DNA of 64,000 nucleotides from assembly GCA_045613765.1 (NCBI GenBank), contig JAZLBO010000012.1, positions 674-64,673 of the forward strand, in the 5' to 3' direction. The DNA is from Clostridia bacterium (GTDB taxonomy: Bacteria > Bacillota > Clostridia > Christensenellales > CAG-917). Shown here piece by piece: positions 2,008 to 64,000 of this stretch. Both the position numbers and the translations under genes were made by a program. The notes under the pieces are model-generated. The model was given only the letters and a program-made list of their open reading frames with translations, was not told where the DNA came from and did no database searches. Each line of letters starts with the position of its first letter. Position 1 is the first letter of the stretch.

Positions 2008-2017
2008 AATCAACTCC

Positions 2018-2317
2018 TTATATTTTTGGACAGAGAGAATATACGCCACTTGCACGGAAAATTTTATCTACGTGGGCGGGTACGTTTTGCAGTAGAAGTT
2101 CAACGTTGTTGTCCTTGAGCCTTTTATATCTTCCAAATATTAAGCCCAAACCGGTGCTGTCAATAAAGGAAACATCCTTAAAGTCAAAGATAACGGCACG
2201 AAGTCCTTGCCTTGAGATGAGATTGTCAATGTCGCTACGGATTTTTTTGACGTAGTAATCATCAATATCTCCAATAAATTTAATGTAAAGATTATCAAAT
2301 TGAAATTTATGCTTCAC
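2018..2317 (-). CDS. spoIIAA: Anti-anti-sigma factor SpoIIAA (STAS domain)
   Basis: 99 aa STAS protein with the phosphorylatable-serine motif region FIDSTGLG. First gene of the spoIIA operon. Confidence 0.9.
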   Translation of the reverse strand: MKHKFQFDNLYIKFIGDIDDYYVKKIRSDIDNLISRQGLRAVIFDFKDVSFIDSTGLGLIFGRYKRLKDNNVELLLQNVPAHVDKIFRASGVYSLCPKI

Positions 2318-2491: not shown

Positions 2492-2568
2492 CGGGGTGTG
2501 GCGCAGTTTGGTAGCGCACTTGCTTTGGGAGCAAGGGGCCGGAAGTTCAAATCTTCTCACCCCGACCA
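2492..2568 (+). tRNA. tRNA-Pro (anticodon UGG)
   Basis: Acceptor stem CGGGGTG/CACCCCG, anticodon arm CTTGC-TTTGGGA-GCAAG, T-loop TTCAAAT, encoded CCA. Confidence 0.93.
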
Positions 2569-2593
2569 ATATCACGAGTAAGCCGAAAGATTC

Positions 2594-2670
2594 GGGCCTT
2601 TAGCTCAGTTGGTTAGAGCGGTCGGCTCATAACCGATTGGTCCGCGGTTCGAGTCCGTGAAGGCCCACCA
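2594..2670 (+). tRNA. tRNA with CAU anticodon; probably tRNA-Ile2 (lysidine type) rather than elongator or initiator Met
   Basis: Cloverleaf with anticodon loop CTCATAA and encoded CCA. The G1-C72 pair and the lack of a GGG/CCC anticodon stem argue against an initiator. The C4-G69/C5-G68 pairs and overall resemblance to ileX-type tRNAs suggest Ile2. That identity assignment is an inference. Confidence 0.85.
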
Positions 2671-2689
2671 TTAAAAAATACAAAAGTAT

Positions 2690-2766
2690 GGCCCGGTAGT
2701 ACAGTTGGTTAGTACGCCAGCCTGTCACGCTGGAGGTCAGGGGTTCGAGCCCCCTTCGGGTCGCCA
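2690..2766 (+). tRNA. tRNA-Asp (anticodon GUC)
   Basis: Anticodon arm CCAGC-CTGTCAC-GCTGG, T-arm AGGGG-TTCGAGC-CCCCT, encoded CCA. Very similar to Bacillus tRNA-Asp. Confidence 0.93.
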
Positions 2767-2772
2767 AAATAA

Positions 2773-2801
2773 ATGAGGCAGTGATAAACTCGCTGCCTCA
2801 T
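2773..2801 (+). other. 9-bp hairpin in the tRNA-Asp/tRNA-Phe spacer
   Basis: ATGAGGCAG (2773-2781) pairs with CTGCCTCAT (2793-2801) around an 11-nt loop. No T-tract follows, so it is not a canonical terminator. Confidence 0.5.
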
Positions 2802-2816
2802 TTAACACCAAAACTA

Positions 2817-2892
2817 GCCTCGGTAGCTCAGTTGGTAGAGCAGGGGACTGAAAATCCCCGTGTCGGTGGTTCAAGTCCGCCCCGAGGCACCA
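2817..2892 (+). tRNA. tRNA-Phe (anticodon GAA)
   Basis: Anticodon arm GGGGA-CTGAAAA-TCCCC, acceptor GCCTCGG/CCGAGGC, encoded CCA. Confidence 0.93.
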
Positions 2893-2900
2893 TCAATAAT

Positions 2901-2976
2901 GCTAGTGTAGCTCAGTCGGTAGAGCAGCTGATTTGTAATCAGCAGGTCGGGGGTTCAAGTCCGTCCACTAGCTCCA
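2901..2976 (+). tRNA. tRNA-Thr (anticodon UGU)
   Basis: Anticodon arm GCTGA-TTTGTAA-TCAGC, acceptor GCTAGTG/CACTAGC, encoded CCA. Confidence 0.92.
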
Positions 2977-2979
2977 TCT

Positions 2980-3043
<64 letters not shown>

Positions 3044-3064
<21 letters not shown>

Positions 3065-6885: not shown

Positions 6886-7318
6886 AAGAAAATTATATCA
6901 AGAATATGTAAAGAATACTGCGCCAAAATCCCCTATGATGCGTAGCATTTTGTGTGCATTTTTGGTGGGTGGATTGATATGTTCAATAGGCGAAGGAGTA
7001 AAAGATATTATAAAACTTATTGAACCTACAATGGCAAAGCAAGACGTTGGCAGTTGGGTTTCTATATCTATGATATTCCTTGGCAGTTTTCTCACTGCAA
7101 TAGGCGTCTACGATAAAATTGGCCATTATGCAGGCGCAGGATCAATTGTACCAATCACTGGATTCGCCAATTCAGTTGTTTCTCCTGCAATGGAATTCAA
7201 CCGAGAAGGCATATTCTTTGGGGTGTGCGCAAAGATGTTTATAATAGCCGGGCCAATCATTGTTTTTGGCGTTGTTGCAAGTGTGATTGTTGGACTTGTG
7301 GGGTTGTTGATCGTATGA
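6878..7318 (+). CDS. spoVAC: Stage V sporulation protein AC
   Basis: 146 aa membrane protein with the signature GAGSIVPITGFANS. Followed by spoVAD and spoVAE. Confidence 0.9.
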   Translation: MIERKLYQEYVKNTAPKSPMMRSILCAFLVGGLICSIGEGVKDIIKLIEPTMAKQDVGSWVSISMIFLGSFLTAIGVYDKIGHYAGAGSIVPITGFANSVVSPAMEFNREGIFFGVCAKMFIIAGPIIVFGVVASVIVGLVGLLIV

Positions 7319-8463
7319 AGAAAAAAGGCAGTTTTCAGTTATCTAACGGGGTATATATCAAAAGTGGATATACCATTGTCGGCAAAAAAGAAGAAGACGG
7401 AAACTATTCTGGCAACTTTGATTTGGTGCTAAAAGATGATCTTTGGGGTGAAAAATCTTACGAAAAAGCCGAGTGTAAAATGCATAGAGAGGCAATCGCG
7501 GGGGCAATTGCAAAGGCAAATTTGACAATTGATGATATTGACGTAATGCTCGCGGGAGATTTGCTCAACGAGTTGAGTGCATCAAGTTTTTCTGCACGCA
7601 ATTTTCCTATGCCATTTTTGGGATTATATAATGCTTGTTCAACTTTTGGCGAGTGTATGATTGTTGGAAGTATGTTGATAGATTCAGGTTTTGCTGATAT
7701 GGTCACTTGTTCAACGTCAAGCCACTTTTCGTCGGCAGAAAGGCAATATAGATACCCGTTGGAACTTGGAAACCAAAGAACACCCACTGCACAATGGACA
7801 GTTACGGGCGCAGGTGCTTGTGTTTTGTCAAAATATAAGCCTGATTTTGAAGATAATCGGTGCAAAACAGGTCAAAATCTTGCAGAAATGGATGAAAATG
7901 ACAAGAAATTCATCTTTGATACCACTGCAGAGCGTATTAAATGCGAAAAAACTCACGTTGCAAAAGTTGTTGAAGGCACAATAGGTCGTGTTGTTGACCT
8001 TGGAATTGATGATGAAAGCAATATGGGTGCAGCGATGGCACCTGCAGCAGCAGACACAATTATGCGCCATCTTGCAGATTTCAACAGAGAACCCGACTAT
8101 TATGATGCCATAATAACGGGCGATTTGGGCAGATACGGCAAAAGTTTGCTCAAATATATCCTTTCAAAAGACGGAATAAAGTTACCCGACACATATATGG
8201 ACTCTGGTGCAGGTTATTTCAAACCCGAGCAACAAACATTTCAAGGTGGATCAGGGGCAGGGTGTATAAGTTCGGTTTTTAATGGTTATTTTCTAAATCA
8301 ACTTGAAAGTGGAGTATTGTCGAAAATACTTGTTGTTCCCACGGGTGCATTGCTCAACAAAGACACCCCACTGCAAAAGGAAACAATCCCAAGTATAGCA
8401 CACGCTTTTGTGGTTGAAACAGAAAAAATCAAGAAAAGTATTCTAAAAAACTTAAAAATATAG
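7315..8463 (+). CDS. spoVAD: Stage V sporulation protein AD (thiolase-like fold)
   Basis: Start set at the ATG at 7315 (ATGA overlap with the spoVAC stop; MKKKGSFQLSNG...). Matches remembered B. subtilis SpoVAD motifs (DLLNE, TSSHFSSAERQYRYP, GRVVDLGIDDESNMGAAMAPAAADTI, GGSGAGC). Carries an extra segment of about 38 aa (see findings). Confidence 0.88.
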   Translation: MKKKGSFQLSNGVYIKSGYTIVGKKEEDGNYSGNFDLVLKDDLWGEKSYEKAECKMHREAIAGAIAKANLTIDDIDVMLAGDLLNELSASSFSARNFPMPFLGLYNACSTFGECMIVGSMLIDSGFADMVTCSTSSHFSSAERQYRYPLELGNQRTPTAQWTVTGAGACVLSKYKPDFEDNRCKTGQNLAEMDENDKKFIFDTTAERIKCEKTHVAKVVEGTIGRVVDLGIDDESNMGAAMAPAAADTIMRHLADFNREPDYYDAIITGDLGRYGKSLLKYILSKDGIKLPDTYMDSGAGYFKPEQQTFQGGSGAGCISSVFNGYFLNQLESGVLSKILVVPTGALLNKDTPLQKETIPSIAHAFVVETEKIKKSILKNLKI

Positions 8464-8520
8464 AATAAAAATCGGCAATTTTGCCGTTTTTCACGAAAAT
8501 TGTGGTGATATAAGGCATAT

Positions 8521-8892
8521 ATGGAATTTTTTTTGAATTATCTAAAAGTCTTTGCAGTTGGTGGTGCAGTTTGCGTTTTGGGTCAAATTTTGATCAACAA
8601 AACAAGCATGTCATCTGCAAGAATTCTTGTCACGTTTTTAATACTTGGAGTCATTCTTGAAATTACAGGTGCTTTTAAGTATATGGAAGAATTTGCAGGT
8701 GCAGGTGTCACTGTGCCAATCATGGGCTTTGGCAGTAATCTTGCAAAGGGTGCTTTGGAAGGAGTAAAAGACGAAGGTATTTTGGGCGCAATAAAAGGTG
8801 GGTTGTCTGCAGTTTCTGCAGGACTTTCATCAGTCATTTTCTTTGGATTTTTCTTTGCTCTAATCTTCAAATCAAAGAGTAAGAAAATATAA
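8521..8892 (+). CDS. spoVAE: Stage V sporulation protein AE (AEb type)
   Basis: 123 aa membrane protein with GAGVTVPIMGFGSNL, paralogous to SpoVAC. Confidence 0.88.
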   Translation: MEFFLNYLKVFAVGGAVCVLGQILINKTSMSSARILVTFLILGVILEITGAFKYMEEFAGAGVTVPIMGFGSNLAKGALEGVKDEGILGAIKGGLSAVSAGLSSVIFFGFFFALIFKSKSKKI

Positions 8893-37071: not shown

Positions 37072-37362
37072 TTACCTCAAATTATCAAGAATTGCGTTGC
37101 CAAGACCACTATCAGTGATGCCAATGGCAAGCACTTGTTCACGATGAACGGCAGACGTGACGCCTTCAATTACAAAAGCAGGTGTATTTGTGCATTTTGA
37201 CATGAGCCTACTCTTGTACTTTTCGGTTGCGCCTTCGTCAATTAGTACTACCACACAAGAATTTAGTCTTTCGGAGATTTTGTCTTCACCAAGCAAAATC
37301 CTACCACTGCGCATTGCAAGGCCAATATACGATTTAATTTTGGATTTGTTTTCTAAGTTCAT
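37072..37362 (-). CDS. ylxQ: L7Ae-family RNA-binding protein YlxQ
   Basis: Start set at the ATG at 37362 (MNLENKSKIKSYIGLAMRSGRILLGED...), by comparison with B. subtilis YlxQ (GLANRARKVVSGED). Overlaps ylxR by 29 nt. Confidence 0.75.
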   Translation of the reverse strand: MNLENKSKIKSYIGLAMRSGRILLGEDKISERLNSCVVVLIDEGATEKYKSRLMSKCTNTPAFVIEGVTSAVHREQVLAIGITDSGLGNAILDNLR

Positions 37363-37594
37363 CGTACACTTCCTTTGCCACACCTTGCTTGAAAGCCACA
37401 TTGAGTGAAAACTTTTTAATGCAAGTTTCAATGCATTTTGCATTGTTGTGGACGTATGCGCCCCTTCCGTCCATTTTTCCGGTTTTGTCTATCACAATAC
37501 CATTTTCTGTTTTTACAAGACGGATAAGGTCAGACTTGTCTGCGTGTTCTCTACACACACAGCATCTTCTTGTGTTCTTGGGATTATTCGGCAT
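37334..37594 (-). CDS. ylxR: YlxR (DUF448) RNA-binding protein
   Basis: 86 aa with RRCCVCRE...DGRGAYV, between nusA and ylxQ. Confidence 0.88.
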   Translation of the reverse strand: MPNNPKNTRRCCVCREHADKSDLIRLVKTENGIVIDKTGKMDGRGAYVHNNAKCIETCIKKFSLNVAFKQGVAKEVYDELRKQIQN

Positions 37595-51979: not shown

Positions 51980-53407
51980 TCACATATCATCACTTGGGAT
52001 TTTTAGAAATATGTCAAGTGGTTTATCTCCAAGTTTGATTGTAGGTATGCCCTCGTATTTTGTCCCATTGCAAAATAATTCACGTTCAGTTGACTTTTCA
52101 ATATGAACGGTGTGTTGCATCCCGTTTTCTCTAAAAAATAGGTCAACTTTTTCAATTTTTTCAGGCAAAACTGGATTTATGGTCAATTTTCCATTTTTTA
52201 CCGAAATCCCCATTTTTACGGTGTTTTTGGGCTGAAATGTGCTTAAAGTATTCTTGAAAACATTGTTTTGTAGAATACTTTTGTTAGATTTTGCACCAAA
52301 AATCATGTTCATTGCAAAGGAAGATGACAGGGCAAGATACAAAATTGTCATATTCGATTTGAAACGAGAAATGCAAAAATAACTGCTTGAAAAATTGATG
52401 TTTTTTGATCGAAAGGCACGAGGCTCTGCCCTGTTTGAATATTTTTGGAGGGAATAAGTGTACGCAGTTTCGTCAATGTTTAGTACAGATGATTGATTGC
52501 TTAATTCAGTGAGAAAAGCGAACTTTGCCTCATTTGGTGCTGTTTGGAAATTTTCATAACTTTCAAGAATTTTCAGTGGCGTATAAAATTTGACATAATC
52601 GTACTGCTCTACAGATTTCAGTTCGCGGAAAATGGTTTGTGAGAGATTGGTTATATTTTCTATTACGTCAAAGTAAACCAAATTTGCAGATGGACAATCA
52701 ATTTTTTCAATTGAAGACGTAAAATGTAAAAACACATTATTTGTTTTCACTTGGTTGTAGAATTTTCGTTTTTCATAAAATTTTGGGTGTGACGTCACTT
52801 TTTGTGCATATTGCCCTACTTTAATCAATGTTTCAACACGTAAAGCAACAAAATACAATTTTTCAAGTAAAACAAATTTTGCCATAAGATGAAAATTTTG
52901 CATTTCAGGAAACGTGATTGTTGATTTCTCGTTGAAGATTTCAAAACAGTGATATGTTCTTTCTGTTGAAATCGTAAAATTGTTTGTTTCAAGGAGTGAT
53001 CTGCAAATTTTTTCTATGCGTATACCTGTCTTGTATGCAGGCAAATCGTCGAGTTTTGAAAAATCAATTTTTGACAATTTCTTCAAAAATAAAAAATTTT
53101 CGTCCACTATGTCACAAAAAGTCTGCAATTCTGGGATGATAAATCTGTTTGATCTTGATTTTTCTATGTCAAGGTGGCGCTTTGCAATATAATTGACAAA
53201 CTTAATTTTGCGCAAAAACATATTGATAGAATACTCTTTTTTGCCGTTTTTGTTGGGCAAAGACACATCTTTTGCAAGATTTTTTATGGTTAAAATGAAG
53301 TCATCATCTGTGAGCGTTTTTGTAAAGTGCTCTCTTTCTTTTGTTTTGACAAGAAAATATACAAGTATAAATATCAAAGTTATAACTATTGAAATAGCAT
53401 ATTCCAT
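51980..53407 (-). CDS. Hypothetical membrane-anchored protein (475 aa)
   Basis: Single N-terminal TM (ISIVITLIFILVYFLV). The rest is Lys/Asn/Phe-rich, and the gene is visibly more AT-rich than its neighbours. No family recognised from sequence alone. Confidence 0.5.
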   Translation of the reverse strand: MEYAISIVITLIFILVYFLVKTKEREHFTKTLTDDDFILTIKNLAKDVSLPNKNGKKEYSINMFLRKIKFVNYIAKRHLDIEKSRSNRFIIPELQTFCDIVDENFLFLKKLSKIDFSKLDDLPAYKTGIRIEKICRSLLETNNFTISTERTYHCFEIFNEKSTITFPEMQNFHLMAKFVLLEKLYFVALRVETLIKVGQYAQKVTSHPKFYEKRKFYNQVKTNNVFLHFTSSIEKIDCPSANLVYFDVIENITNLSQTIFRELKSVEQYDYVKFYTPLKILESYENFQTAPNEAKFAFLTELSNQSSVLNIDETAYTYSLQKYSNRAEPRAFRSKNINFSSSYFCISRFKSNMTILYLALSSSFAMNMIFGAKSNKSILQNNVFKNTLSTFQPKNTVKMGISVKNGKLTINPVLPEKIEKVDLFFRENGMQHTVHIEKSTERELFCNGTKYEGIPTIKLGDKPLDIFLKIPSDDM

Positions 53408-54619: not shown

Positions 54620-54960
54620 TCTCATTTGCGAGATTAGTCTATAAGCCGAGTTCTGTCTTGAACGGTCATCTATCTAGGCGATACGTTGCCGTATCGCTCA
54701 AGCGACTTGTGGAGCGGGCGGGCAACCCTATATTGCTCCGTGTCTTGCATCGAGTGGGGTTTACATCACGCCTCGTCACCGATTTGTGGGTGAGCTCTTA
54801 CCTCGCCTTTCCATCCTTACCCAACAAGTTGGGCGGTATTTTTCTGTTGCACTTTCCTTAAAGTCGCCTTCACAGGTATTTCACCTGCACCCTTGCCCTA
54901 TGATGCTCGGACTTTCCTCACGGTATTACTACCCCGCGACCGTCCGGCTAACTCGCAAAA
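54620..54960 (-). ncRNA. rnpB: RNase P RNA (bacterial type B)
   Basis: On the - strand: universally conserved GAGGAAAGTCCG (reverse complement of 54908-54919), GGAAAGTGCAACAGAAAAATACCGCC, and GGTAAGGATGGAAAGGCGAGGTAAGAGCTCACC. The 5' GCGAGTTAGCCGG pairs with the 3' CGGCTTATAGACTAATCTCGC to form P1. Ends are accurate to about 10 nt. Confidence 0.93.
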
Positions 54961-55108: not shown

Positions 55109-56800
55109 CTACTTGAGGCTTTGTTTATATTTGTCTGCCCAACTCTTCATTTCTTTTGCATGAGGTATTGCATGGACTGAATAGTCTTTGCCACCAATAA
55201 GTCTTGCCACTTCGTCGGTGTTGTCTTGAAGGAGATTGAGATGCGTATTTGTCTTGCCGTTTTCAGTTGATTTTGCGATTAAGAAATGGTTGTCTGCCAT
55301 AGCAGCAAGTGAAGGCATGTGTGTGACTGCAATCACTTGACGCTTGCGAGATATATTGCACATCTTCTCTGACACAACAGCAGAAATATTGCCCGAAATA
55401 CCCGTGTCAATTTCGTCAAAGATCATTGTGCCAACGCTGTCAACGTCTGCAAGAATATTCTTGAGAGCAAGCATAAATCTTGACATTTCGCCACCTGATA
55501 TGATCTTTGCAAGAGGTTTCAAAGGCTCGCCAACATTGGGGGAAATCAAGAACTCAACGTTGTCTGCGCCGTTTGATGAAAACTCGTCAGGCGTTTCGGT
55601 TGTATTAATTTGAACTGTAAAGGTGCTTCCACCCATACCCAGATCCTTAAGTTCGCCAATGATTGATTTTTCAAATGAATTTGCAATTTTTTGACGTGAA
55701 ATTGTGAGATTTTGGCAAGCAGTTTCAAGAGTTGCCACGGCCTTTTTAAGTTCGTTTTCTATTGCTATTACTCTATCTCCTGCATTTGACAATCTCTCGT
55801 GTTCTTCAACGGCCTTGTTGTAAAAATCAGTGAGTGCATTGTAGTTGCCACCGTACTTTCTTTGGATCATACGGACAACTTCAAGTCTTTCTTCAATTTG
55901 TTCTGCACTGTGACGATCGTAGTCAAGTTCATCAAGGATTGACTTTACAGTGTCTGCAACGTCAATGATTTCTGCTCTTGAATCTTCAAGGCGCTCAGTC
56001 AAACCATCAATGCGACTGTCGTATTGAGAAATCATATTGAGCGTTGACACAGTTGATTTGAGTGCAGGGCTTACTGCCGTGCTATCGTATCCGTCAAGAA
56101 GGTTCTTTGCATTGTTGAGAGCCTCCAAAATGCGCTCCATATTGCGAATACGCTTGCGCTTTTCAAGAAGTTCATCTTCTTCTCCATCTTTGACGTCTGC
56201 CTTTTCAATTTCGTTGATTTGATAGGACAAGATGTCAAGGCGTCTAACCCTTTCATCTTCGTCCCCAAACGAGTTGAATTCTCTCTTGAGTGCAGTATAG
56301 TTTTTGTATGCGTCCTTGACTTTGTCAAGGAGTGTTGCGTGCTTGTCCCCACCAAGACTGTCAAGAAGTGCAATATGTGAGTTGGGATTGAGCAAAGATT
56401 GATGCTCGTGTTGACCGTGTATGTCAACAAGAAGTTCTGTAAGCCCTTTGAGAGTTGACAACGTTGTCACTCTGCCATTGATACGGCAAGAATTTTTGCC
56501 TTCAGTGGTCATCTTTCGATTAAGGATCAAAACTTCTTCAACTTCAATGCCAATTTCTTCAAGGTACTCTTGAATTTGGGGTGTAATATAGTCGCTGAAA
56601 ACAGCCTCAACCACGGCATAGTCAGTGCCGTATCTAATAAGAGAGCGATCTGCTCTTTCGCCCAACACGAAAGACACGGCGTCAATGATAATTGACTTAC
56701 CTGCGCCGGTTTCACCACTCAAGATATTTAGACCATTGCCAAGTTCTACATAGAGTTTGTCAATGAGTGCTATGTTTTCAACTGAAAGACTTTGTATCAT
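55109..56800 (-). CDS. recN: DNA repair protein RecN
   Basis: 563 aa SMC-like protein. Walker A GETGAGKS, a long coiled coil, signature/Walker B region SGGEMSRFMLAL...MIFDEIDTGISG. Confidence 0.95.
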   Translation of the reverse strand: MIQSLSVENIALIDKLYVELGNGLNILSGETGAGKSIIIDAVSFVLGERADRSLIRYGTDYAVVEAVFSDYITPQIQEYLEEIGIEVEEVLILNRKMTTEGKNSCRINGRVTTLSTLKGLTELLVDIHGQHEHQSLLNPNSHIALLDSLGGDKHATLLDKVKDAYKNYTALKREFNSFGDEDERVRRLDILSYQINEIEKADVKDGEEDELLEKRKRIRNMERILEALNNAKNLLDGYDSTAVSPALKSTVSTLNMISQYDSRIDGLTERLEDSRAEIIDVADTVKSILDELDYDRHSAEQIEERLEVVRMIQRKYGGNYNALTDFYNKAVEEHERLSNAGDRVIAIENELKKAVATLETACQNLTISRQKIANSFEKSIIGELKDLGMGGSTFTVQINTTETPDEFSSNGADNVEFLISPNVGEPLKPLAKIISGGEMSRFMLALKNILADVDSVGTMIFDEIDTGISGNISAVVSEKMCNISRKRQVIAVTHMPSLAAMADNHFLIAKSTENGKTNTHLNLLQDNTDEVARLIGGKDYSVHAIPHAKEMKSWADKYKQSLK

Positions 56801-57255
56801 TATTTCAAAATGTTTTCGAGATTTTCAACGATTCCGTTGACGTTTTCCAATGAGTCAACTGCAACAAAGATTGTGTTGTCACCTGCGATAACCCCAAGGA
56901 TTTCTTCCAAGTCAAGACGATCAATGAATTCTGCAGCAGCACTTGCACTGCCTTGCTCTGTCTTGATGACGATAAGGTTTTCTGCTGAACGAATTGACAA
57001 AACTGTATTACGGAAAATCTTGACAAATTTGTCTGCAGATGAAGGCTCTTTGGGTTGTTGTGCAACGTACTTGTAATGTCTGCCGTCGTCAGTAAACGTC
57101 TTGATGATGTTCATATCCTTGATGTCACGGCTTACTGTTGCTTGTGTTACGGAATAACCGTCTGCACGAAGGCGTGCAACCAATTCTTCTTGTGTGTCGA
57201 TATCGTATTTTGTGATGATTTCAAGTATTTTGAGTTGTCTTGTTGCTCTTGCCAT
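56800..57255 (-). CDS. argR: Arginine repressor ArgR/AhrC
   Basis: Start set at the ATG at 57255 (MARATRQLKILEIITKYDIDTQEELV...). Winged-helix N-domain and the C-terminal GVIAGDNTIFV motif. The stop overlaps the recN ATG (TAATG). Confidence 0.92.
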   Translation of the reverse strand: MARATRQLKILEIITKYDIDTQEELVARLRADGYSVTQATVSRDIKDMNIIKTFTDDGRHYKYVAQQPKEPSSADKFVKIFRNTVLSIRSAENLIVIKTEQGSASAAAEFIDRLDLEEILGVIAGDNTIFVAVDSLENVNGIVENLENILK

Positions 57256-57272
57256 TTTATCACCTTTGTGGG

Positions 57273-58064
57273 TCAGTCTGTGATGCCCCACTTGTTCATT
57301 TTTTCGTATAGTTTGTTGTAGAAGTTTGTTTTGCCACTTATAAACTTTGCAGTCCTTGTTGACTTGACAAATTCAACTCTATCAGTGTTTTCAAGTGCGA
57401 TTTGATCTCTGCCATCTGCAATGACAATTCCATCAGTGCCAAGGGTTTCAATCTCAATTTTGCTATTCCCGGACACGATTATCGGGCGAGAATTGAGAGA
57501 GTGAGCACATATTGGATTGATGATAATTGCATCAACGTCAGGCGCTACAATAGGGCCACCTGCCGACAATGAGTATGCCGTTGAGCCTGTTGGAGATGAA
57601 ATGATGACGCCATCTGCATGGTATTTGTGGGCAAATACACCATTTATCTTCACTGACAAGTGTATGGGCTTGGATGAAGTTGTTTTGACAACGAAATCAT
57701 TGAGAGCATATTGTTTGTTGCCGTCAACGGTTGTTTCAAGAAGGTTGCGACAAGTAAGATGGTCGCTTTCAAGTGCCTTTGACAACTCCTCTGCCGTCAC
57801 ATTGGACTCATATTGAGTGAGAAAACCAACATTGCCCAAGTTTACGCCAAGTATGGGGCAGGTCGCTTTTGTTGACGCGTAAAGCATAGTGCCGTCCCCA
57901 CCAAACACCAAAAGACGATCAAAACAAGCGCAATCGTCAGTCAAATTGTCAAGTTCGACAATATTATGACCGAGAGCCGTCAAATCTTTTGTCAAGGATA
58001 GTTTTGTTTCATTGTCCTTGAGATTGGTTTTGGAATAAACTGCCACTTTCATAATCGTCATCAT
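57273..58064 (-). CDS. nadK: NAD kinase
   Basis: 263 aa with GGDGT and the SSPTGSTAYSLSAGGPIV motif. Which of the clustered N-terminal ATGs is the true start is uncertain. Confidence 0.92.
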   Translation of the reverse strand: MMTIMKVAVYSKTNLKDNETKLSLTKDLTALGHNIVELDNLTDDCACFDRLLVFGGDGTMLYASTKATCPILGVNLGNVGFLTQYESNVTAEELSKALESDHLTCRNLLETTVDGNKQYALNDFVVKTTSSKPIHLSVKINGVFAHKYHADGVIISSPTGSTAYSLSAGGPIVAPDVDAIIINPICAHSLNSRPIIVSGNSKIEIETLGTDGIVIADGRDQIALENTDRVEFVKSTRTAKFISGKTNFYNKLYEKMNKWGITD

Positions 58065-58185
58065 TATACATTAATATTCATTTTTATACAAGTGCTTTAC
58101 ATAAATTATAAATATAATTTTGTAACCTTGAATATGGCGCTATTTTCTTGTTATCCAACAAAATTTGGCTACAAAATACTTTTTC

Positions 58186-58214
58186 TTGACAAATGTCCAT
58201 TGTGAAACTATAAT
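58186..58214 (+). promoter_or_regulatory. Perfect-consensus sigma-A promoter
   Basis: TTGACA (58186-58191), 17 nt spacer, TATAAT (58209-58214). The ATG of the 37-codon ORF begins only 7 nt after the -10 element. Confidence 0.65.
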
Positions 58215-58220
58215 ATAACC

Positions 58221-58334
58221 ATGGAAAATTTATTGTGTATTAGTGATTTGACGGTTAGTTTGATTGGTGCACTCGCAGGGCTTGCTCTTGGCGTGGCACT
58301 TCTTGTGTTCTTTGTTATAAGAAAAAAGGACTAA
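58221..58334 (+). CDS. 37-aa hydrophobic peptide, apparently leaderless
   Basis: MENLLCISDLTVSLIGALAGLALGVALLVFFVIRKKD: one TM helix plus a basic tail. There is no room for an SD. The ORF is bracketed by a consensus promoter and a strong terminator, and it is the only + strand unit inside a 34-kb run of - strand genes. It is below the track's 60-aa cutoff. Confidence 0.45.
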   Translation: MENLLCISDLTVSLIGALAGLALGVALLVFFVIRKKD

Positions 58335-58358
58335 CTTTCAATTTTTGGACAAAAATAA

Positions 58359-58386
58359 AACAACCTGTTTTCAGGTTGTTTTTTTA
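58359..58386. terminator. Bidirectional rho-independent terminator (serves the peptide unit and pcp)
   Basis: AACAACCTG-TTTT-CAGGTTGTT with TTTTT on the + side and an A-run (a T-run on the - strand) on the other side. Confidence 0.8.
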
Positions 58387-58425
58387 TTTACTATATTTAT
58401 TGTGTTCAAAAGGATGAAGATGAAA

Positions 58426-59013
58426 TCAGTCCTCAAGGGTTTTTATGGCGATTGTAAGACCTTTTACAATATCAGCCAAACTCATTGACGGTTCTTTGCC
58501 TTGATCGGTTGAATATGGCACATGGATGAAACCAACTTTTATGGCTGTGCCTTTGAAACGTGAGAGCAAGGTGTATAACACATCATTGCAGACAAAAGTG
58601 CCTGCCGAGTATGAAACTTGAGCGTCTATTCCGTTGTTTTTTATGTTTTCAGCAATTTTTCGCACCGGGATTGTGGAAAAATATGCATCTTGTCCATCTT
58701 CAAAAATTCTTTCGTCTTTTGGTTGATTGCCGTCATTGTCGGGTGTGTTGGCATTGCGCAAATTTATACCCAAATACTCGGGTGTAATTGCACTTCTTCC
58801 CCCTGCTTGCCCCACTGAAATGATAACATCTGGGCAAAGTTTTTCTGCAGTTTCAACAAGGATTTTTGCAGATTTTTCAAATGCAACTGGCAGACGCAAT
58901 TTTGTCAACGTGCATTCGCCAATATTTTCTGGCAACGAAGAAACTGCATCCCAAGAGGGATTGATTGTTTCTCCTCCAAAAGGTTCAAATCCTGTTATCA
59001 AAAGTTTTTTCAT
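58426..59013 (-). CDS. pcp: Pyroglutamyl-peptidase I
   Basis: 195 aa with ITGFEPFGGETINPS, the catalytic-Cys region GTFVCN and HVP. Confidence 0.92.
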   Translation of the reverse strand: MKKLLITGFEPFGGETINPSWDAVSSLPENIGECTLTKLRLPVAFEKSAKILVETAEKLCPDVIISVGQAGGRSAITPEYLGINLRNANTPDNDGNQPKDERIFEDGQDAYFSTIPVRKIAENIKNNGIDAQVSYSAGTFVCNDVLYTLLSRFKGTAIKVGFIHVPYSTDQGKEPSMSLADIVKGLTIAIKTLED

Positions 59014-59021
59014 ATTATCTG

Positions 59022-59735
59022 TCAGTTGTTTTTGCCAAGATAAAGAAGGTACTCTATGTTTTTATTTTCGTAGAAAATTGGGGAGGTTGACTGCCCTAAA
59101 ATTTCAAAGCCACTTGATATTGCATAGCCCTTGACATAGTTGATCGCTTTTTGACGATCCTTTTCGTTTAATACAATACCCTTTTTGCTTAAAGCAGATT
59201 TGTCAAGTTCAAATTGGGGTTTTATCAAAACAACTGCCTTTCCACCCACTTTCAAAAGTTTGTGTATTGATGGCAGTATGTGTTTCAAGGATATAAAACT
59301 AACGTCACTGCACACGAAGTCCATCTTGTCGCATATAGGCAAATCTCTTGCATTACACTGCAAAAATGTGACACGATCATCTTCAAGTATTCTGTCTGGA
59401 AGGTCGCAGTCTGCCACGTCAACGGCAAGGACACTGCTCACTTCGTTCCTCAAAAGAACATCAGTGAAACCACCATTGCTACAACCAATATCGGCAGTGT
59501 CAAGTCCTTTGAGATTGAGAGAAAAATCTTTGATTGCTTGAAGCAACTTATATGCGCCTTGTGAAGCGTAGCCTTCATCTTCTACTATCTCAACGGACAT
59601 ATTTTCCTTAATGTCAAAAGATGGCTTAGTTATCACTCTGCCATCCACTTTGACTTTGCCCTTTAAGACGAGATTTTCTGCATACGTCCTTGAAGGTACA
59701 AGATTATTTTCTACAAGATACTTGTCAACTCTCAA
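59022..59735 (-). CDS. tlyA: TlyA-family rRNA (cytidine-2'-O)-methyltransferase (S4 plus FtsJ domains)
   Basis: 237 aa. S4 N-domain (RVDKYLVENNLVPSRTYAENLV) and SAM motif DIGCSNGGFTD. TTG start directly abutting the stop of the upstream membrane-protein gene. Confidence 0.88.
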   Translation of the reverse strand: MRVDKYLVENNLVPSRTYAENLVLKGKVKVDGRVITKPSFDIKENMSVEIVEDEGYASQGAYKLLQAIKDFSLNLKGLDTADIGCSNGGFTDVLLRNEVSSVLAVDVADCDLPDRILEDDRVTFLQCNARDLPICDKMDFVCSDVSFISLKHILPSIHKLLKVGGKAVVLIKPQFELDKSALSKKGIVLNEKDRQKAINYVKGYAISSGFEILGQSTSPIFYENKNIEYLLYLGKNN

Positions 59736-60443
59736 TTAACCTTTGACTTCCTTATCTTTTTCTTTGTTTTCGCCGTGTTTCTTTTGCTTTTCCTTTTGAG
59801 TTTTGCGTCTGCGTCTTTCTTCAGGATTGAACACGGCAATAAGTCTTGCTATGAACATAATAAACTCTTTAGAGTTTTTGATTGCGATATTTTTGAGAAA
59901 TGCTTTGCCACCGATTGTCAATGCAGACACCACGCCAGAGATTGAAATGGTGATGAGTTTTTGTTGCCAATCTTGTGCAATATCAGTGACGACTTTCAGA
60001 GTGATTGCAGCAGCGCAAGCACCTGAAACAATGCCGAATATATCCCCTACCACGTCACTGCAAACGTTTGAAACTTTTTCATTGTTTTTGACAAGCCAAA
60101 GTGCAGTCTTTGCGCCATAGACCTTTCTTGATGCCATAGACACAAATGGCGTCATATCACATGAGGTTGCTGCAACGCCAATGCCATCAAACAAGATACT
60201 GCAAAGTATCAAGAAGAACAAAAGCAGGATTGTCACAATGATATGCTCGCTTGATGCAGTGAGTTCACTGAGAAAACTGATAAATGCAGATACAAAAAAA
60301 GAAACAACCGTAATTTTCACGCTCCAAAGGTTGCGCTTCTTTTTAGGTTGCTTTTTTTGTTTCTTTTCTGCTTGTTGAGATGGGCGAGTTTCCTCGTCCT
60401 TTTGGATTTCGATGCTACTGTAAGAGTCTTCTTGCTTTTCCAT
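59736..60443 (-). CDS. oapA: Four-TM membrane protein with Lys-rich tails; candidate OLE-associated protein A
   Basis: Start set at the ATG at 60443 (MEKQEDSYSS..., GGAGA SD 6 nt upstream). The track's longer N-terminus (to 60566) would read into the structured RNA. Four hydrophobic helices. Its position immediately 3' of the OLE-like RNA is the defining context for OapA. The family call rests on context, not on a remembered motif. Confidence 0.6.
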   Translation of the reverse strand: MEKQEDSYSSIEIQKDEETRPSQQAEKKQKKQPKKKRNLWSVKITVVSFFVSAFISFLSELTASSEHIIVTILLLFFLILCSILFDGIGVAATSCDMTPFVSMASRKVYGAKTALWLVKNNEKVSNVCSDVVGDIFGIVSGACAAAITLKVVTDIAQDWQQKLITISISGVVSALTIGGKAFLKNIAIKNSKEFIMFIARLIAVFNPEERRRRKTQKEKQKKHGENKEKDKEVKG

Positions 60444-60449
60444 ATTTCT

Positions 60450-61055
60450 CCAAAGTTTGTGAAATGGTGGCAACAATCCGAGTAAACCTTGCGCCATAGG
60501 TTCGGTAGGTTTTCCCGATGCAACAACTTGCCGTCGCCGTCCAAGACGTTTCCGATTACGTTGCAACCAACACGGTTTCCCTGTGTTTCACCGAATCGCC
60601 ACTTAGTGCACACTATAATCCCCGAACTGCTTCCAAGAACAGTCTAGAAGTTTTCCTTGGCAACATTATTCCGACCTAGTCCTGTTTTGCAGTTAAGATT
60701 TCAAAAGGCAGTCGGCAAAGTTTGTCGGCCGACAAACGATAACCGTTCCTTTATCCCTGCGTAACCACTCAAGGCAGGCTACACTGTCCACAGCGAATTG
60801 ACTCCACCGCATGACAGGTTTAATCCCAGTCAGTAGACTATTCATCTGGAATTGGTCCACCGATTTGGGTCTCCACGGAGATTGGGTCGCCCTTCGCATG
60901 CCGTTGCGACACGCCCAAAAACCTTAACTCCCAGCAACAGCCCAAGTTTGGGCAACAAAGGCCATCACCAGAAACTTCATCGATATGCCCTTTAGCGATA
61001 TTTTACCCCCGCCTTCGGACCGGATAATGCTGACTAGAATACTGCGCCACCATTC
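60450..61055 (-). ncRNA. ole: Large structured noncoding RNA; best explanation is OLE (ornate, large, extremophilic) RNA
   Basis: An interval of about 600 nt between the recG terminator and the oapA-like SD with no credible ORF. It looks more G+C-rich than the flanking intergenic DNA (by eye, not computed). It has its own strong promoter and many local helices, for example GTTTGTCGGCCGACAAAC (60720-60737), 60882-60918, 60870-60881, 60940-60953, 60633-60660 and 60569-60587. Downstream gene order is 4-TM protein, tlyA(rrmJ), nadK(nadF), argR(ahrC), recN, which matches the published OLE neighbourhood. Ends are approximate (about 15 nt). Confidence 0.75.
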
Positions 61056-61061
61056 ATATAT

Positions 61062-61089
61062 ATTATACACAACTACAAAAAATTGTCAA
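61062..61089 (-). promoter_or_regulatory. Near-consensus sigma-A promoter driving the OLE-like RNA
   Basis: On the - strand: TTGACA (61089-61084), 16 nt spacer, TATAAT (61067-61062). Confidence 0.65.
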
Positions 61090-61138
61090 ATAGGAAAAAT
61101 TGGTTGAATTGTATTAAAAACAAAAAAGACTTTTTGAT

Positions 61139-61163
61139 CAAAAAAACCACCATAAAAGGTGGC
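61139..61163 (-). terminator. Rho-independent terminator of recG
   Basis: On the - strand: GCCACC-TTTTAT-GGTGGT followed by TTTTTTT. Confidence 0.7.
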
Positions 61164-61213
61164 TTTTGACATTTTTAGATATTTACATTGTAAAAAACTT
61201 CTATCAATTTGCA

Positions 61214-63301
61214 TCAACTGTTCAAAGTGACAGATTTCAGTTGATTTTCAAACTCAGAGTAATCTGCTTCAAATAGTTCCTTCATCATTGTCGTCAAATG
61301 GTCATATCTTGCGTCCTTTGACATTTCTTTGGCTCGCATAAGCACCTTTGCATTTGATGGCAATTTGAAGTATGGCGAGCAAGTGACACCCTTTTGTCTT
61401 GTGCCAAGGAAATCCCCTGCTCCACGCATTTCAAGGTCTTTTTCTGCAAGCATAAGCCCGTCATCAAAGTTTTCCATTGCAAGAAGTCGATCAAGAGCAT
61501 TTGCACCCAATGACTTTGTGTGCAGGAAACAGTATGCAGGAAGTCCATCTCTGCCCACTCTGCCACGAAGTTGATGAAGTGATGCAAGTCCAAATCTGTC
61601 GGCATTGAGTATGACAATTATGCTCGCCTTTGTGTCTATGCCGACTTCAATGAGAGACGTTGCCAAAAGCACGTCAATTTCCCCGTTTGAAAAACTTGTC
61701 ATCACAGCATTTTTATCTGCATTTGTCATGCGTCCGTGAAGAATTGATGCGTTTAGATTGCCAAATTGTTCGCTATACGTTGCAAAAAACTTTTCAACTG
61801 AATATATATCCAAACCGTCACTATCTTTGATGGTGGGACACACAAAGAAGGCTTGTTTTTTGTGGTTTTTGCATTGCTCGACAACATACTGAACAAGTCC
61901 ATCCAATTTTTGCTCGGACAGGATTTTTGTGGAAATATTTGTCTTTGCCGTTTCCCTTTTGTATATGGATGATACGTCGATATCGTCATAGAGAGTAAGG
62001 GCAAGTGTCCTTGGAATTGGTGTTGCAGTCAAGGTTAAAACGTCGTCTGCCCCTTTGTTTTCAAGTTCTGCTCTGCAAGAAACACCAAACTTGTGTTGTT
62101 CGTCAATGACTGCAAGTGAAAGATTGTTGTATTCTACATCTTTTGAAACAAGAGATTGAGTGCCGAATATGACTGAAATATCTCCACTGCTCAATCTTTC
62201 TAAAATTGCACGTCTTTCTGCAGATTTGGTTGACGAAGTCAACAGAGCCACTTCAACACCCAAGTTTTCTGCAATTTTCTTGAACTTTTCATATTGTTGT
62301 GTGGCAAGAATTTCGGTGGGACACATATATGCCGACTGTTTGCCTGACATTGATGCAAATGCCAAGGTGTAATATGCCACCACAGATTTTCCAGATCCAA
62401 CGTCACCACTGACAATGCGTGACATATTGTTTGAACTTGTCAAGTCATCTTCAATATCATTCATTGCTTTCAATTGTGACACTGTCAACTCAAATGGAAT
62501 CGCTTTTTGGAAATCTTCAATGCTGAATTTGGTGCTATTATAGTGGTTTTTACGCGTTCTAACGGCAGATAAATTAGAATTGCGATAAGTTTTGAGACCT
62601 ATTGCAAAGTCGATTGAAGACAGCGTTTCGATGGCATCAGCACACTCATTTTTATCCTTTGGAAAGTGAATTTTGTAGAGTGTATCGTAAAGAGCGTATT
62701 CGCTATCACTCAAAATTGATTGAGAATTTGAGTTTCCGTCAATCTCTCTTTCAATGGGTGTATTGTCATCTTCACAAACGCCTTTCTCATTTGGCACATA
62801 ACCAAGGGCAACAAAGCACTGGTAAATCATCTTTTTGAAAGTGCGTTGTCCAATTTCATTGCGCAAAGGATATACGGTGTAAATGCCTTTTGTCAACAGT
62901 TTTAGTTTGTCAGTTGGCTCAACTGTTGGATTAACAAGGAGAGAAACGCCACCATCCGTTATCTTTGAGAAAAGACGGAACTTTCTTCCTATTTCAAACT
63001 GGTTTTTAAGGTATGGTTGATTGAAGAAAATTGCATTGAAAAAAGTTGGTTTCACTGCAATAGAATCACGGAAAGTGACAGTAAAGGACTTTTTGCGACT
63101 ATTGTTTTCTTTTAGTCGAATCACTTCCCCTTCAAATAAATAAAATTGCCCTTCTTCTGCGTTTAATACAGAAGTGGGCAATCCTAAATCTACGTATTTT
63201 GACGGAAAGAAGGACATAAGATTGCCAATTGTTGCAATGCCGAGCGCATCAAGTTTCTTTTCTATTTGTGCGCCTATGCCCTTAATTTCGTTGAGTTTCA
63301 T
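61214..63301 (-). CDS. recG: ATP-dependent DNA helicase RecG
   Basis: Start set at the ATG at 63301 (MKLNEIKGIGAQ...), one base after the yloV stop. Wedge domain plus SF2 helicase motifs GDVGSGKS, DEQHKFG, TATPIPRT and QLRGRVGR. Confidence 0.94.
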   Translation of the reverse strand: MKLNEIKGIGAQIEKKLDALGIATIGNLMSFFPSKYVDLGLPTSVLNAEEGQFYLFEGEVIRLKENNSRKKSFTVTFRDSIAVKPTFFNAIFFNQPYLKNQFEIGRKFRLFSKITDGGVSLLVNPTVEPTDKLKLLTKGIYTVYPLRNEIGQRTFKKMIYQCFVALGYVPNEKGVCEDDNTPIEREIDGNSNSQSILSDSEYALYDTLYKIHFPKDKNECADAIETLSSIDFAIGLKTYRNSNLSAVRTRKNHYNSTKFSIEDFQKAIPFELTVSQLKAMNDIEDDLTSSNNMSRIVSGDVGSGKSVVAYYTLAFASMSGKQSAYMCPTEILATQQYEKFKKIAENLGVEVALLTSSTKSAERRAILERLSSGDISVIFGTQSLVSKDVEYNNLSLAVIDEQHKFGVSCRAELENKGADDVLTLTATPIPRTLALTLYDDIDVSSIYKRETAKTNISTKILSEQKLDGLVQYVVEQCKNHKKQAFFVCPTIKDSDGLDIYSVEKFFATYSEQFGNLNASILHGRMTNADKNAVMTSFSNGEIDVLLATSLIEVGIDTKASIIVILNADRFGLASLHQLRGRVGRDGLPAYCFLHTKSLGANALDRLLAMENFDDGLMLAEKDLEMRGAGDFLGTRQKGVTCSPYFKLPSNAKVLMRAKEMSKDARYDHLTTMMKELFEADYSEFENQLKSVTLNS

Positions 63302-63302
63302 T

Positions 63303-64000
63303 TTATTCTGCTGAAAGTATATAGTAATAATGTGGTTGGCCACCGTAATATACGGCAACTTCAAGGTCGGGATACTCTGTTTCAATGACTTCTGCCACGT
63401 GCATTGCTTCGCTTTCTGTGACGCCTTCACCATAATAGAGTGTGACCATATCGCAGTTTGAGCAAACTTTTCTTACACTTGTGAGAGTTGCTTCTGTGAT
63501 TGATGCGCTTTTTGCAACGATTTTCTTGTTTGCGATTGCAATGATGTCACCTTCTTTCACTGAAAAACCGTTCATACGTGTATTTCTAACTGCGTGTGTG
63601 ACCTCAACTGTCTTGACACCTGCAAAAGATGACTTCATATTTTCAAAGTTTTCTTCTGCTGTGCAGTCAGGTGAGAAAGCAAGTGCTGCTGAGATGCCTT
63701 CGGGGGTGCAAGTTGTAGGAATAACGAAGACGTTGACGTCTGCAAGTTCCTGTGCTTGTTGTGCTGCGAAGATAATATTTGAGTTGTTGGGGAGAACGAA
63801 AACGTTCTTTGCATTTGTTGAGTTGACTGCGCCAAGGATATCATAGACGCTGGGGTTCATTGTTTGACCACCTTCAACAACAATGTCAACCATCAAATCT
63901 TTGAAGATTGCGCTGATGCCGTCGCCTGCGCAGATTGAAACCATTGCAAAGTCCTTTTGAGGCACTTTTTTCTTTGATTTCTTCTTGTCGTCGTCTTCGC
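63303..64000 (-). CDS. yloV: DAK2-domain fusion protein YloV, C-terminal part; the N-terminus lies beyond the right edge
   Basis: The frame is open to position 64000. The C-terminal DegV/DhaL-associated domain ends ...YYGGQPHYYYILSAE. It lies upstream of recG, as in B. subtilis yloV-recG. Confidence 0.8.
   Translation of the reverse strand, partial: EDDDKKKSKKKVPQKDFAMVSICAGDGISAIFKDLMVDIVVEGGQTMNPSVYDILGAVNSTNAKNVFVLPNNSNIIFAAQQAQELADVNVFVIPTTCTPEGISAALAFSPDCTAEENFENMKSSFAGVKTVEVTHAVRNTRMNGFSVKEGDIIAIANKKIVAKSASITEATLTSVRKVCSNCDMVTLYYGEGVTESEAMHVAEVIETEYPDLEVAVYYGGQPHYYYILSAE

Follow-up and report, generated by a model that had tools for sequence, protein, structure and literature searches.

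The window considered here, by which we mean the whole stretch of 64,000 nucleotides (nt) analysed from contig JAZLBO010000012.1, carries on its minus strand the genes recG, oapA, tlyA, pcp, nadK, argR and recN, and between recG and oapA lies the segment with which this analysis is concerned (Table 1). Read in the direction of transcription, recG is closed by an intrinsic terminator, which is followed by a sigma-A-type promoter, by about 600 nt rich in helices and by the Shine-Dalgarno sequence of oapA. In our opinion it is nearly certain that 60464-61053 on the minus strand is an ole gene, encoding an OLE (ornate, large, extremophilic) RNA of the full-length type, approximately 590 nt long, in uncultured spore-forming Christensenellales-like gut Clostridia.

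An Rfam scan of the whole window returned a single OLE match, to RF01071, with 431.4 bits, where the gathering score is 50, and an E value of 2.4e-123. The match is untruncated and covers model positions 1-616 of 616. A preliminary description of this DNA had recognised OLE RNA here and had proposed a cmsearch with RF01071 as the check; that comparison is passed decisively, and the identification stands on an end-to-end match. In the same scan ROOL, GOLLD, the raiA motif and HEARO had no match in the window at the gathering threshold, and no evidence against the OLE identity came up in the analyses that were run. When the Rfam consensus structure is transferred onto the window copy, 132 of its 153 pairs are standard. 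Other OLE loci scored with the same model were all full length (17 of 17, 403-551 bits); the window's clade reaches 403-440 bits, with the conspecific contig L121 at the same 431.4 as the window, and the OLEs of Clostridium and Bacillaceae reach 495-551. The lower score is common to the whole clade and reflects distance from the Rfam seed. The segment is also richer in G+C than other intergenic DNA, as had been remarked, with 0.48-0.51 across the interval, 0.30-0.37 in the flanking intergenic DNA and about 0.40 in the genes.

Homologues were collected by scanning species-representative genomes with the conserved 5' motif GCAGTATTCTAGTCAG (16 nt, exact), which gave at least 120 loci, and 114 of the 120 matches listed show blastn similarity to the window OLE. 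Together with the window copy, 92 full-length homologues were aligned by MAFFT L-INS-i, and since this alignment of 93 sequences is blind to structure, the covariation test is conservative. On it 87.4% of the cells of the Rfam pairs hold standard pairs, compared with 42-45% in a control in which the 3' partner is moved by 1-3 columns, and changes on both sides are found in 126 of the 153 pairs. If P1, the terminal helix, is included, double changes occur in 133 of 161 pairs, and none of 500 column shuffles (mean 69% paired) attains any of the four measures. Covarying pairs were found in every helix, 19 Rfam helices and P1 having been mapped (OLE RNAs, of some 600 nt, have roughly 20-25), so the covariation that the preliminary description had asked for in relatives is borne out by compensatory changes. 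The lower pairing at two length-variable tips, P9.3 (64%) and P14.1 (58%), is probably accounted for by the structure-blind alignment.

Table 1. Features of the OLE locus and of the genes around it. Positions are those of the window; fractions of 93 refer to the alignment of 93 sequences.
Feature	Position	Strand	Evidence or remark
recG intrinsic terminator	61140-61163	-	stem CCACC 61162-61158 / GGTGG 61151-61147, seven T 61146-61140
ole promoter, sigma-A type	61062-61089	-	TTGACA 61089-61084, 16-nt spacer, TATAAT 61067-61062; 12/12 matches
OLE RNA gene, full RF01071 extent	60451-61066	-	Rfam match
Functional OLE core closed by P1	60464-61053	-	590 nt
P1, terminal helix	61053-61046 / 60471-60464	-	absent from Rfam model; core GGUGGC 61051-61046 / GCCACC 60471-60466
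P3/P3.1, 5' strand GCAGU-AUU-CUAG	61034-61045	-	pairs with 60647-60639
P3/P3.1, 3' strand CUAGACUGU	60639-60647	-	partner of 61045-61034
P4 hairpin, A-rich loop UAAAAUAU	60994-61013	-	97% paired; AAAA kept in 92-93/93
J4a/5 AUCGAUGAAG	60975-60984	-	P4a palindrome AUCGAU and bulged k-turn strand; every position fits a column conserved in 86-93/93
P5/P5.1, 20 base pairs, loop GCCCA 60953-60949	60928-60974	-	96% paired, 15 covarying pairs; loop kept in 92-93/93
P6/P6.1	60877-60923	-	inner helix UCGCA/UGCGA 60909-60905 / 60898-60894, 96% paired, 4 covarying pairs
P7, 17 base pairs	60825-60869	-	16/17 pairs covary
P8, 13 base pairs	60784-60817	-	93% paired, 12 covarying pairs
P9 to P9.3, long arm	60679-60775	-	all sub-helices covary; tip is the 18-nt palindrome 60737-60720
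3' domain, P12-P15	60472-60631	-	11-base-pair long-range helix 60631-60621 / 60482-60472, 96% paired, 11/11 pairs covary
P13 hairpin ACAC-A-GG[GAAA]CC-GUGU	60570-60586	-	GNRA tetraloop, single bulged A two positions 5' of loop
P14.1 tip, GCGA tetraloop (CG-GCGA-CG)	60532-60539	-	consensus structure and alignment
Shine-Dalgarno of oapA, GGAG	60448-60451	-	13 nt past P1 3' end; ATG at 60443, 20 nt past P1
oapA, 235 amino acids	59736-60443	-	CNNM/DUF21-like membrane protein
recG	61214-63433	-	Pfam RecG wedge and helicase domains; NCBIfam RecG
tlyA	59022-59735	-	Pfam, NCBIfam; abuts oapA
pcp (pyroglutamyl peptidase)	58426-59013	-	Pfam, NCBIfam
nadK	57273-58064	-	Pfam, NCBIfam
argR	56800-57291	-	Pfam, NCBIfam
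recN	55109-56800	-	Pfam, NCBIfam

The same alignment bears on the possibility that the interval is protein-coding, either through one of its short open reading frames (ORFs) or as the beginning of a longer OapA. Indeed, ORFs of 68, 98 and 276 amino acids (aa) do exist there, the last as an N-terminal extension of the downstream gene, and a public OapA call from the same species (P0001; 253 aa, 99% identical, MAQGLLGLLPPFHKLWRN-MEKQ...) begins 54 nt inside the OLE 3' domain (window 60444-60497; L121 1240-2001). However, stops and frameshifts break these frames in nearly all homologues: the 68-aa ORF is intact in 2 of the 93, the part of the 98-aa ORF inside OLE in 6 and that of the 276-aa extension in 3, and even in a copy that is 94% identical to the window's (L037) a 2-nt shift of the 68-aa frame leads to a stop at codon 17. 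Substitutions in the interval track base-pairing and not codon structure, and four close OapA orthologues (P0002, P0005, P0008, P0017) begin with MEKQE, that is, at the ATG 60443. We see virtually no chance that the interval is coding, and the earlier statement that it has no credible coding frame holds. L121 has no gene call in the interval from recG to oapA, and it appears that OLE is unannotated in that contig and that the start of its OapA is mis-set.

The helix names P1-P15 are our own assignment, made from helix order and loop sequences as PMC12265935, PMC12286853 and PMC7936274 state them in their text. Several helices had already been proposed from the letters, and they fare differently. 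The palindrome of 18 nt is real, and it covaries. Of the nested helices at 60882-60918, the outer one, UUGGG/CCCAA, covaries and belongs to P6, but the inner one, GUCGC/GCGAC, is paired in 41% and competes with the covarying UCGCA/UGCGA. The proposed CCAAG/CUUGG (60633-60660) is 61% paired and competes with a covarying AAG/CUU hairpin of 3 base pairs, which is 100% paired, and UCUC/GAGA (60870-60881) belongs to the conserved single-stranded J6/7, where there is almost no covariation. Finally, GCCCA/UGGGC (60940-60953) is invariant and clashes with the helix P5/P5.1.

The elements by which OLE RNA is held together and binds its partners can be followed in the window copy. P3/P3.1, which links the two OLE domains and has been proposed to span the membrane (PMC12265935), has nine pairs, paired in 90-93 of the 93 sequences; it gives no covariation signal, and the 16-nt search motif includes its 5' strand, which is invariant through the way the sequences were chosen. 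In the dimers seen by cryo-electron microscopy (cryo-EM), the P4 loop makes the A-A bridge B1 (PMC12286853, PMC12265935), and the loop tetranucleotide of P9.3 is a self-complementary kissing loop, bridge B3 (PMC12286853). In our alignment the P9.3 loop (60730-60727) reads GGCC in 80 of 93 sequences and is palindromic in 83, and the P6.1 loop GGCAU is invariant, its GGCA being complementary to UGCC of the P5.1 loop. The palindrome AUCGAU of P4a is a mapped OapA site, and the bulged strand of J4a/5 lies in the k-turn bound by OapC (PMC9723947, PMC12265935); this k-turn of OapC/bS21 is formed by J4a/5 (UC-GAU-GAAG) with J5/6 or J6/7 (PMC9723947, PMC12286853). All the k-turn strands of the window copy equal the consensus (AUCGAUGAAG at 60984-60975, GAGUUAAGG at 60930-60922 and, in J6/7, CCGUGGAGA at 60878-60870). 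OapB binding is determined by the GNRA tetraloop of P13 and a single-nucleotide bulge two positions 5' of it, and the P14.1 tip is a weak secondary OapB site in Halalkalibacterium (Bacillus) halodurans (PMC7936274), the species that serves as genetic and biochemical model for OLE. At the level of sequence, both OapB determinants are present in P13 of the window copy, as are all three dimer-bridge elements, namely UAAAAUAU in L4, the UGCC/GGCA loops of P5.1/P6.1 and GGCC in L9.3. The P13 stem of L037 carries compensatory changes relative to the window, which points to purifying selection on structure.

In two near relatives from the window's own clade, L055 and L004, P13 seems truncated in the structure-blind alignment (14 and 19 nt, versus 25 in the same alignment slice) and is without the bulge, L004 also without the GNRA loop. 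This suggests that the OapB site has been patchily lost within an otherwise full-length OLE clade.

Fernando and Breaker (PMC11332333) distinguish full-length OLEs, variant 1, in which P7-P9 are shortened and the OapB site is often lost, and variant 2, without P7 and P8. The presence of P7 excludes variant 2. Segment sizes of the window copy lie at or near the median (P7 45 vs 45 nt, P8 34 vs 32, P9 97 vs 99, 3' domain 160 vs 160), and P13 measures 21 nt. In OLE RNAs some 25% of the positions are nearly invariant (>97%); here near-invariant columns, conserved in at least 97% of the 93 sequences, number 148 of 590, with 132 of them outside the search motif, and the window copy agrees at 147 of the 148; the lone mismatch, 60679, adjoins a 1-nt insertion and probably results from a shift in the alignment. 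Given the median-sized segments and the near-invariant columns kept, we assign the copy to the full-length type. One may still ask whether it is no more than a non-functional remnant, decaying in a host-associated lineage from which the system is being lost, comparable to the reduced TANB77/RF39 variants. In favour of this one could cite its 21 non-standard pairs with the weakened P6 and P14.1, its 431 bits, lower than the 495-551 of Clostridium and Bacillaceae OLEs, and the near relatives L055 and L004 with their apparently truncated P13. Yet the near-invariant positions are retained with that single exception, no stem is missing and their lengths are at the median, the promoter matches the consensus perfectly and is conserved, oapA is unbroken and still has its DxxxD motif, P13 shows the compensatory changes just mentioned, and lower scores are a property of the clade as a whole. 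We therefore regard a remnant as extremely improbable and the copy as a functional, full-length-type OLE.

Turning to transcription, the recG terminator of the preliminary description was missed by a pattern scan for terminators, but folding showed that the hairpin is real (-14.9 kcal/mol, z = -4.4; none of 200 shuffles as good). It is without counterpart in most relatives, where the recG stop codon abuts the -35 box. The promoter had likewise been read correctly, and it is the sole perfect site in 59600-61400, 70 nt beyond the recG hairpin. In seven relatives (L037, L055, L091, L079, L004, L020, L086) its boxes stand in the same register, while spacers and upstream sequence differ. Since the -10 box ends at 61062, we infer a transcription start near 61055, which is 2-3 nt ahead of P1. 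The pairs of P1 alternate between GC, AU, UA and CG across the 93 sequences; its six core pairs (61051-61046) are formed in 87-93 of them and the two outermost in 61 and 78, and the helix is closed in the minimum free energy (MFE) fold too. Because P1 covaries, the functional RNA would run from about 61053 to 60464, 590 nt (median 592). A Shine-Dalgarno sequence near 60450 had also been predicted, and GGAG is indeed found there. As P1 ends so shortly before it and the pattern scan gave no terminator-like site for the minus strand in the stretch leading from OLE to oapA, the two genes probably share one transcript.

This layout raises the question of whether the main action of the 600 nt is in cis, that of a giant leader at the 5' end with riboswitch-like control of oapA and the genes downstream, and not that of a stable particle RNA. 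The promoter does fire into the structure with no terminator before oapA, only 13 nt separate the end of P1 from the Shine-Dalgarno sequence and 20 nt from the ATG, and the arrangement promoter-OLE-oapA is conserved in the clade. However, no riboswitch-type expression platform was found, that is, neither a terminator or anti-terminator nor a helix that sequesters the Shine-Dalgarno sequence, which lies outside all conserved helices. To our knowledge, OLE is several times the size of any known riboswitch. Elsewhere, moreover, the family is a stable, abundant, membrane-localised component of a ribonucleoprotein (RNP) that binds OapA, OapB and OapC (PMC12265935, PMC9723947, PMC7936274), and a role in cis could add to the RNP role without replacing it. 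We find it quite unlikely that control in cis is the main function, and we prefer to see in this RNA a component of an OLE particle.

The product of the next gene had been described as a protein with four transmembrane (TM) segments of the OapA type, and this is upheld by four hydrophobic segments, at residues 44-62, 67-85, about 127-156 and 163-181 (from hydropathy, a crude method), by PF01595 and by the DxxxD motif. PF01595 is the sole domain match (34.9 bits, cut-off 28.4), with no CBS or CorC domain. The motif reads DVVGD at residues 130-134 and is conserved as D-V-[VI]-G-D in orthologues; it sets OapA apart from ordinary CNNM domains (PMC11332333). Basic clusters stand before TM1 (KKQKKQPKKKR) and after the last helix (RRRRKTQKEKQKK). 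Homologues number 677, the closest of them from metagenome-assembled genomes (MAGs) labelled "Clostridia bacterium", and in 92 fetched loci among the matches listed OLE is followed by an OapA homologue. Exact-sequence look-ups of the window's OapA (from ATG 60443) and Pcp matched no record. Judged by these features, the product of this gene is a bona fide OapA. An MpfA-type CNNM-CBS-CorC protein was not found among the large ORFs examined in the window.

The gene neighbourhood had been called the canonical one for OLE, and this is correct in part. oapA, tlyA, nadK, argR and recN are all there, but pcp stands between tlyA and nadK, and both ispA and dxs are absent. The gene dxs "often resides" between oapA and tlyA (PMC10898510), and since oapA abuts tlyA in the window, there is no dxs between them. 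With the exception of pcp, the gene order downstream of oapA is the same in relatives. Among the matches listed, OLE is followed in the fetched loci by tlyA in 55, argR in 31, nadK in 26 and recN in 25, and fakA-recG stands upstream of OLE in 8 loci, all of the window's clade. Four more distant loci (L119, L068, L036, L064) have oapA and tlyA about 2 kb apart, at the place given above for dxs. In the window, as in the conspecific L121 (an ENA contig), tlyA is separated from nadK by pcp and by a 360-nt AT-rich gap (58065-58425, G+C about 0.30), and the gene spacing in L037, the closest other species, is too tight for pcp. Thus pcp with its gap (58065-59013) looks like a recent insertion into a conserved gene string, and the gap may hold a promoter for nadK-argR-recN.

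The nearest OLE of another species, among the matches listed, is that of L037, a Clostridia MAG from sheep colon. The next tier, at 73-77% identity, includes Christensenella sp. UBA7588 and Ca. Stercoripulliclostridium, and a Christensenellales bacterium is also close. From such relatives we infer that the host is an anaerobic, Christensenellales-like member of the Bacillota from an animal gut. Sporulation genes occur at 872-2317 (minus strand) and at 7225-8892 (plus strand), with a STAS anti-sigma antagonist, an anti-sigma kinase and a sigma factor in an order like spoIIAA-spoIIAB-sigF, together with SpoVAD and SpoVAC/SpoVAEB. The host is therefore probably a spore former, in agreement with a report that the presence of OLE correlates with that of sporulation genes (PMC11332333).

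The 16-nt motif was also met in contigs binned outside the Bacillota: three Actinomycetota MAGs (L057, L073, L104), a Fibrobacter (L062), a deltaproteobacterium (L076) and a woesearchaeote (L093). All of these except L093 have further blastn similarity to OLE, and the match in L093 may be a chance 16-mer. Fernando and Breaker attribute OLEs outside the Bacillota to horizontal transfer or binning errors (PMC11332333).

Some other features of the window deserve mention. A class A RNase P RNA (RF00010, 246.5 bits, full length) lies at 54625-54955 on the minus strand, 153 nt downstream of recN and on the same strand, so that the string from ole to recN is flanked by two large structured RNAs, OLE and RNase P RNA. 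Between the region upstream of this RNA and a gene for an MgsA-type AAA+ ATPase there is a 475-aa ORF (51980-53407, minus strand) that matches no Pfam family at E <= 1e-5. Six tRNA genes are clustered at 2492-3061 on the plus strand, with several spurious ORFs overlapping them. An ORF at 37072-37443 (minus strand), in the operon rimP-nusA-ylxR-[ORF]-infB-rbfA, has sub-threshold matches to the L7Ae family/YlxQ (24 bits, cut-off 77) and no Pfam match; it is probably a divergent YlxQ, a k-turn-binding paralogue of OapC/YbxF. It is the sole candidate that came up for a partner gene of OLE other than oapA, and the nusA-infB operon is where ylxQ is usually located, not ybxF/oapC.

A number of points weigh against our interpretation and should be given together. 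Selection by an exact 16-nt motif makes those 16 columns invariant by construction and biases the sample towards typical OLEs. In the window copy 21 of the 153 consensus pairs are non-standard, including three in P6 and four in P14.1. The MFE of 60464-61053 is modest when compared with shuffled sequences (z = -2.17), and 4 of 100 shuffles fold equally well. A search of the 64-kb window for oapB and oapC, covering the 28 small ORFs free of overlap with larger ones, yielded neither gene, the sole candidate being the sub-threshold YlxQ/L7Ae-like ORF mentioned above. The transcription start, the co-transcription with oapA, the processing and the abundance of the RNA are deduced and not observed, and the transmembrane and ion-transport parts of the mechanism set out below are published hypotheses.

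The modest folding energy has a corollary of its own: thermodynamic screens by themselves would miss this OLE or rank it low, certain as its structure is.

With this in mind, a mechanism can be proposed by homology with work on H. halodurans and Clostridium (PMC12265935, PMC12286853, PMC7936274, PMC9723947, PMC10898510). Transcription would start at about 61055, with OLE as the 5' part of an ole-oapA-tlyA-...-recN transcript. In the folded RNA the invariant P3/P3.1 would connect two domains, a 5' one with P3-P9 and another with P1, P2 and P10-P15. Two copies would make up a homodimer by way of the A-rich loop of P4, the loops of P5.1 and P6.1, which are complementary, and the palindromic GGCC of P9.3. 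Dimers of OapA, a CNNM-like putative divalent-cation transporter without cytoplasmic CBS/CorC, would hold the RNA at the membrane. Since the OapB site and the k-turn are present in the window copy, small RNA-binding proteins probably aid its folding, OapB at P13 and OapC/bS21 at the k-turn. According to the cited studies, the OLE particle makes cells better able to withstand alcohol, cold, an excess of Mg2+ and growth on poor carbon sources (PMC12265935, PMC12286853, PMC7936274, PMC9723947, PMC10898510), and the likeliest job of the particle here would be to sense and relay stress, be it divalent-cation load, membrane or alcohol stress, cold or poor carbon sources. The RNA would then provide the regulatory surface that transporters of the MpfA/CorB type carry as CBS/CorC domains.

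It is tempting to go one step further. In this clade ole may head its own transcription unit instead of lying within a long operon of housekeeping genes, with a conserved promoter and the RNA as the 5' end of the oapA mRNA, and assembly could be obligatorily in cis, the nascent OapA capturing the OLE of its own transcript as it inserts into the membrane. If so, OLE would double as a membrane-targeting leader that fixes the ratio of RNA to protein before processing frees the downstream message, and the scattered losses of the P13 OapB site among close relatives (L055, L004) would mark a lineage that is being simplified towards an OLE-OapA core. We offer this as a speculation that is rather unlikely to be right.

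OLE is among the largest and best-conserved bacterial noncoding RNAs whose biochemical function is unsolved, and recent structures suggest that it may cross the membrane. We disagree, however, with the high value that the preliminary description gave to this locus. The copy is typical in every respect tested, Rfam has OLE as a curated family, of which about 2,800 representatives have been reported (PMC11332333), and there is nothing new in the identity of this already known RNA. As a typical full-length member from an uncultured host that is not open to manipulation, of a lineage that published genome-wide surveys already include, it adds little. Mildly distinctive are the dedicated, conserved promoter and the compact unit without dxs in this clade; these could make the ole-oapA unit suitable as a minimal cassette for heterologous expression. 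Its practical value lies in annotation, because the ends of the RNA, its promoter and its partner-binding elements are now mapped, and the start of the public OapA runs 54 nt into OLE.

How does this system compare with those already known? Other large structured RNAs of incompletely known function, ROOL, GOLLD, the raiA motif and HEARO, are unrelated to OLE in sequence and structure, though ROOL and GOLLD form homo-oligomers too (PMC12286853). The OLEs of C. acetobutylicum and C. botulinum form homodimers known from cryo-EM, and the window copy has the sequence elements of all three sets of their dimer bridges (PMC12286853, PMC12265935). A Clostridium OLE in our sample (L064) is about 63% identical to the window copy, whose P6 is weaker, with 3 of 9 pairs non-standard; in a Bacillaceae relative (L084, Lentibacillus) the aligned OLE is only about 59% identical. 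OLEs of variant 1 (TANB77) and variant 2 (RF39) likewise come from uncultured gut Clostridia known through metagenomes (PMC11332333), but unlike them the window copy has unreduced P7-P9 and an intact OapB site in P13.

With the OLE of H. halodurans the window copy shares the family RF01071, the helices, the near-invariant nucleotides, the P13 GNRA tetraloop with its bulge, the J4a/5 k-turn strands, an oapA gene directly downstream and tlyA, nadK, argR and recN farther on. The differences are in detail and in setting. In P13 the loop is GAAA and the bulge A in the window, whereas H. halodurans has GUGA and U (PMC7936274); its ole sits within a long polycistronic unit (PMC12265935). The window, by contrast, has fakA-recG on the upstream side of ole, then a terminator and a consensus promoter dedicated to ole, and neither dxs nor ispA is present at the locus; the hosts differ as well, a gut anaerobe here and an alkaliphile there. 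In the classic gene order of H. halodurans, ole is located between ispA and oapA-dxs.

As for the protein, OapA is a distant relative of CNNM (PMC11332333). The OapA of the window shares PF01595 with the transporters MpfA, CorB and CNNM, and differs from them in that it is without CBS/CorC and carries the OapA-specific DxxxD motif. It is for these missing regulatory domains of OapA that OLE RNA has been proposed as a substitute (PMC12265935).

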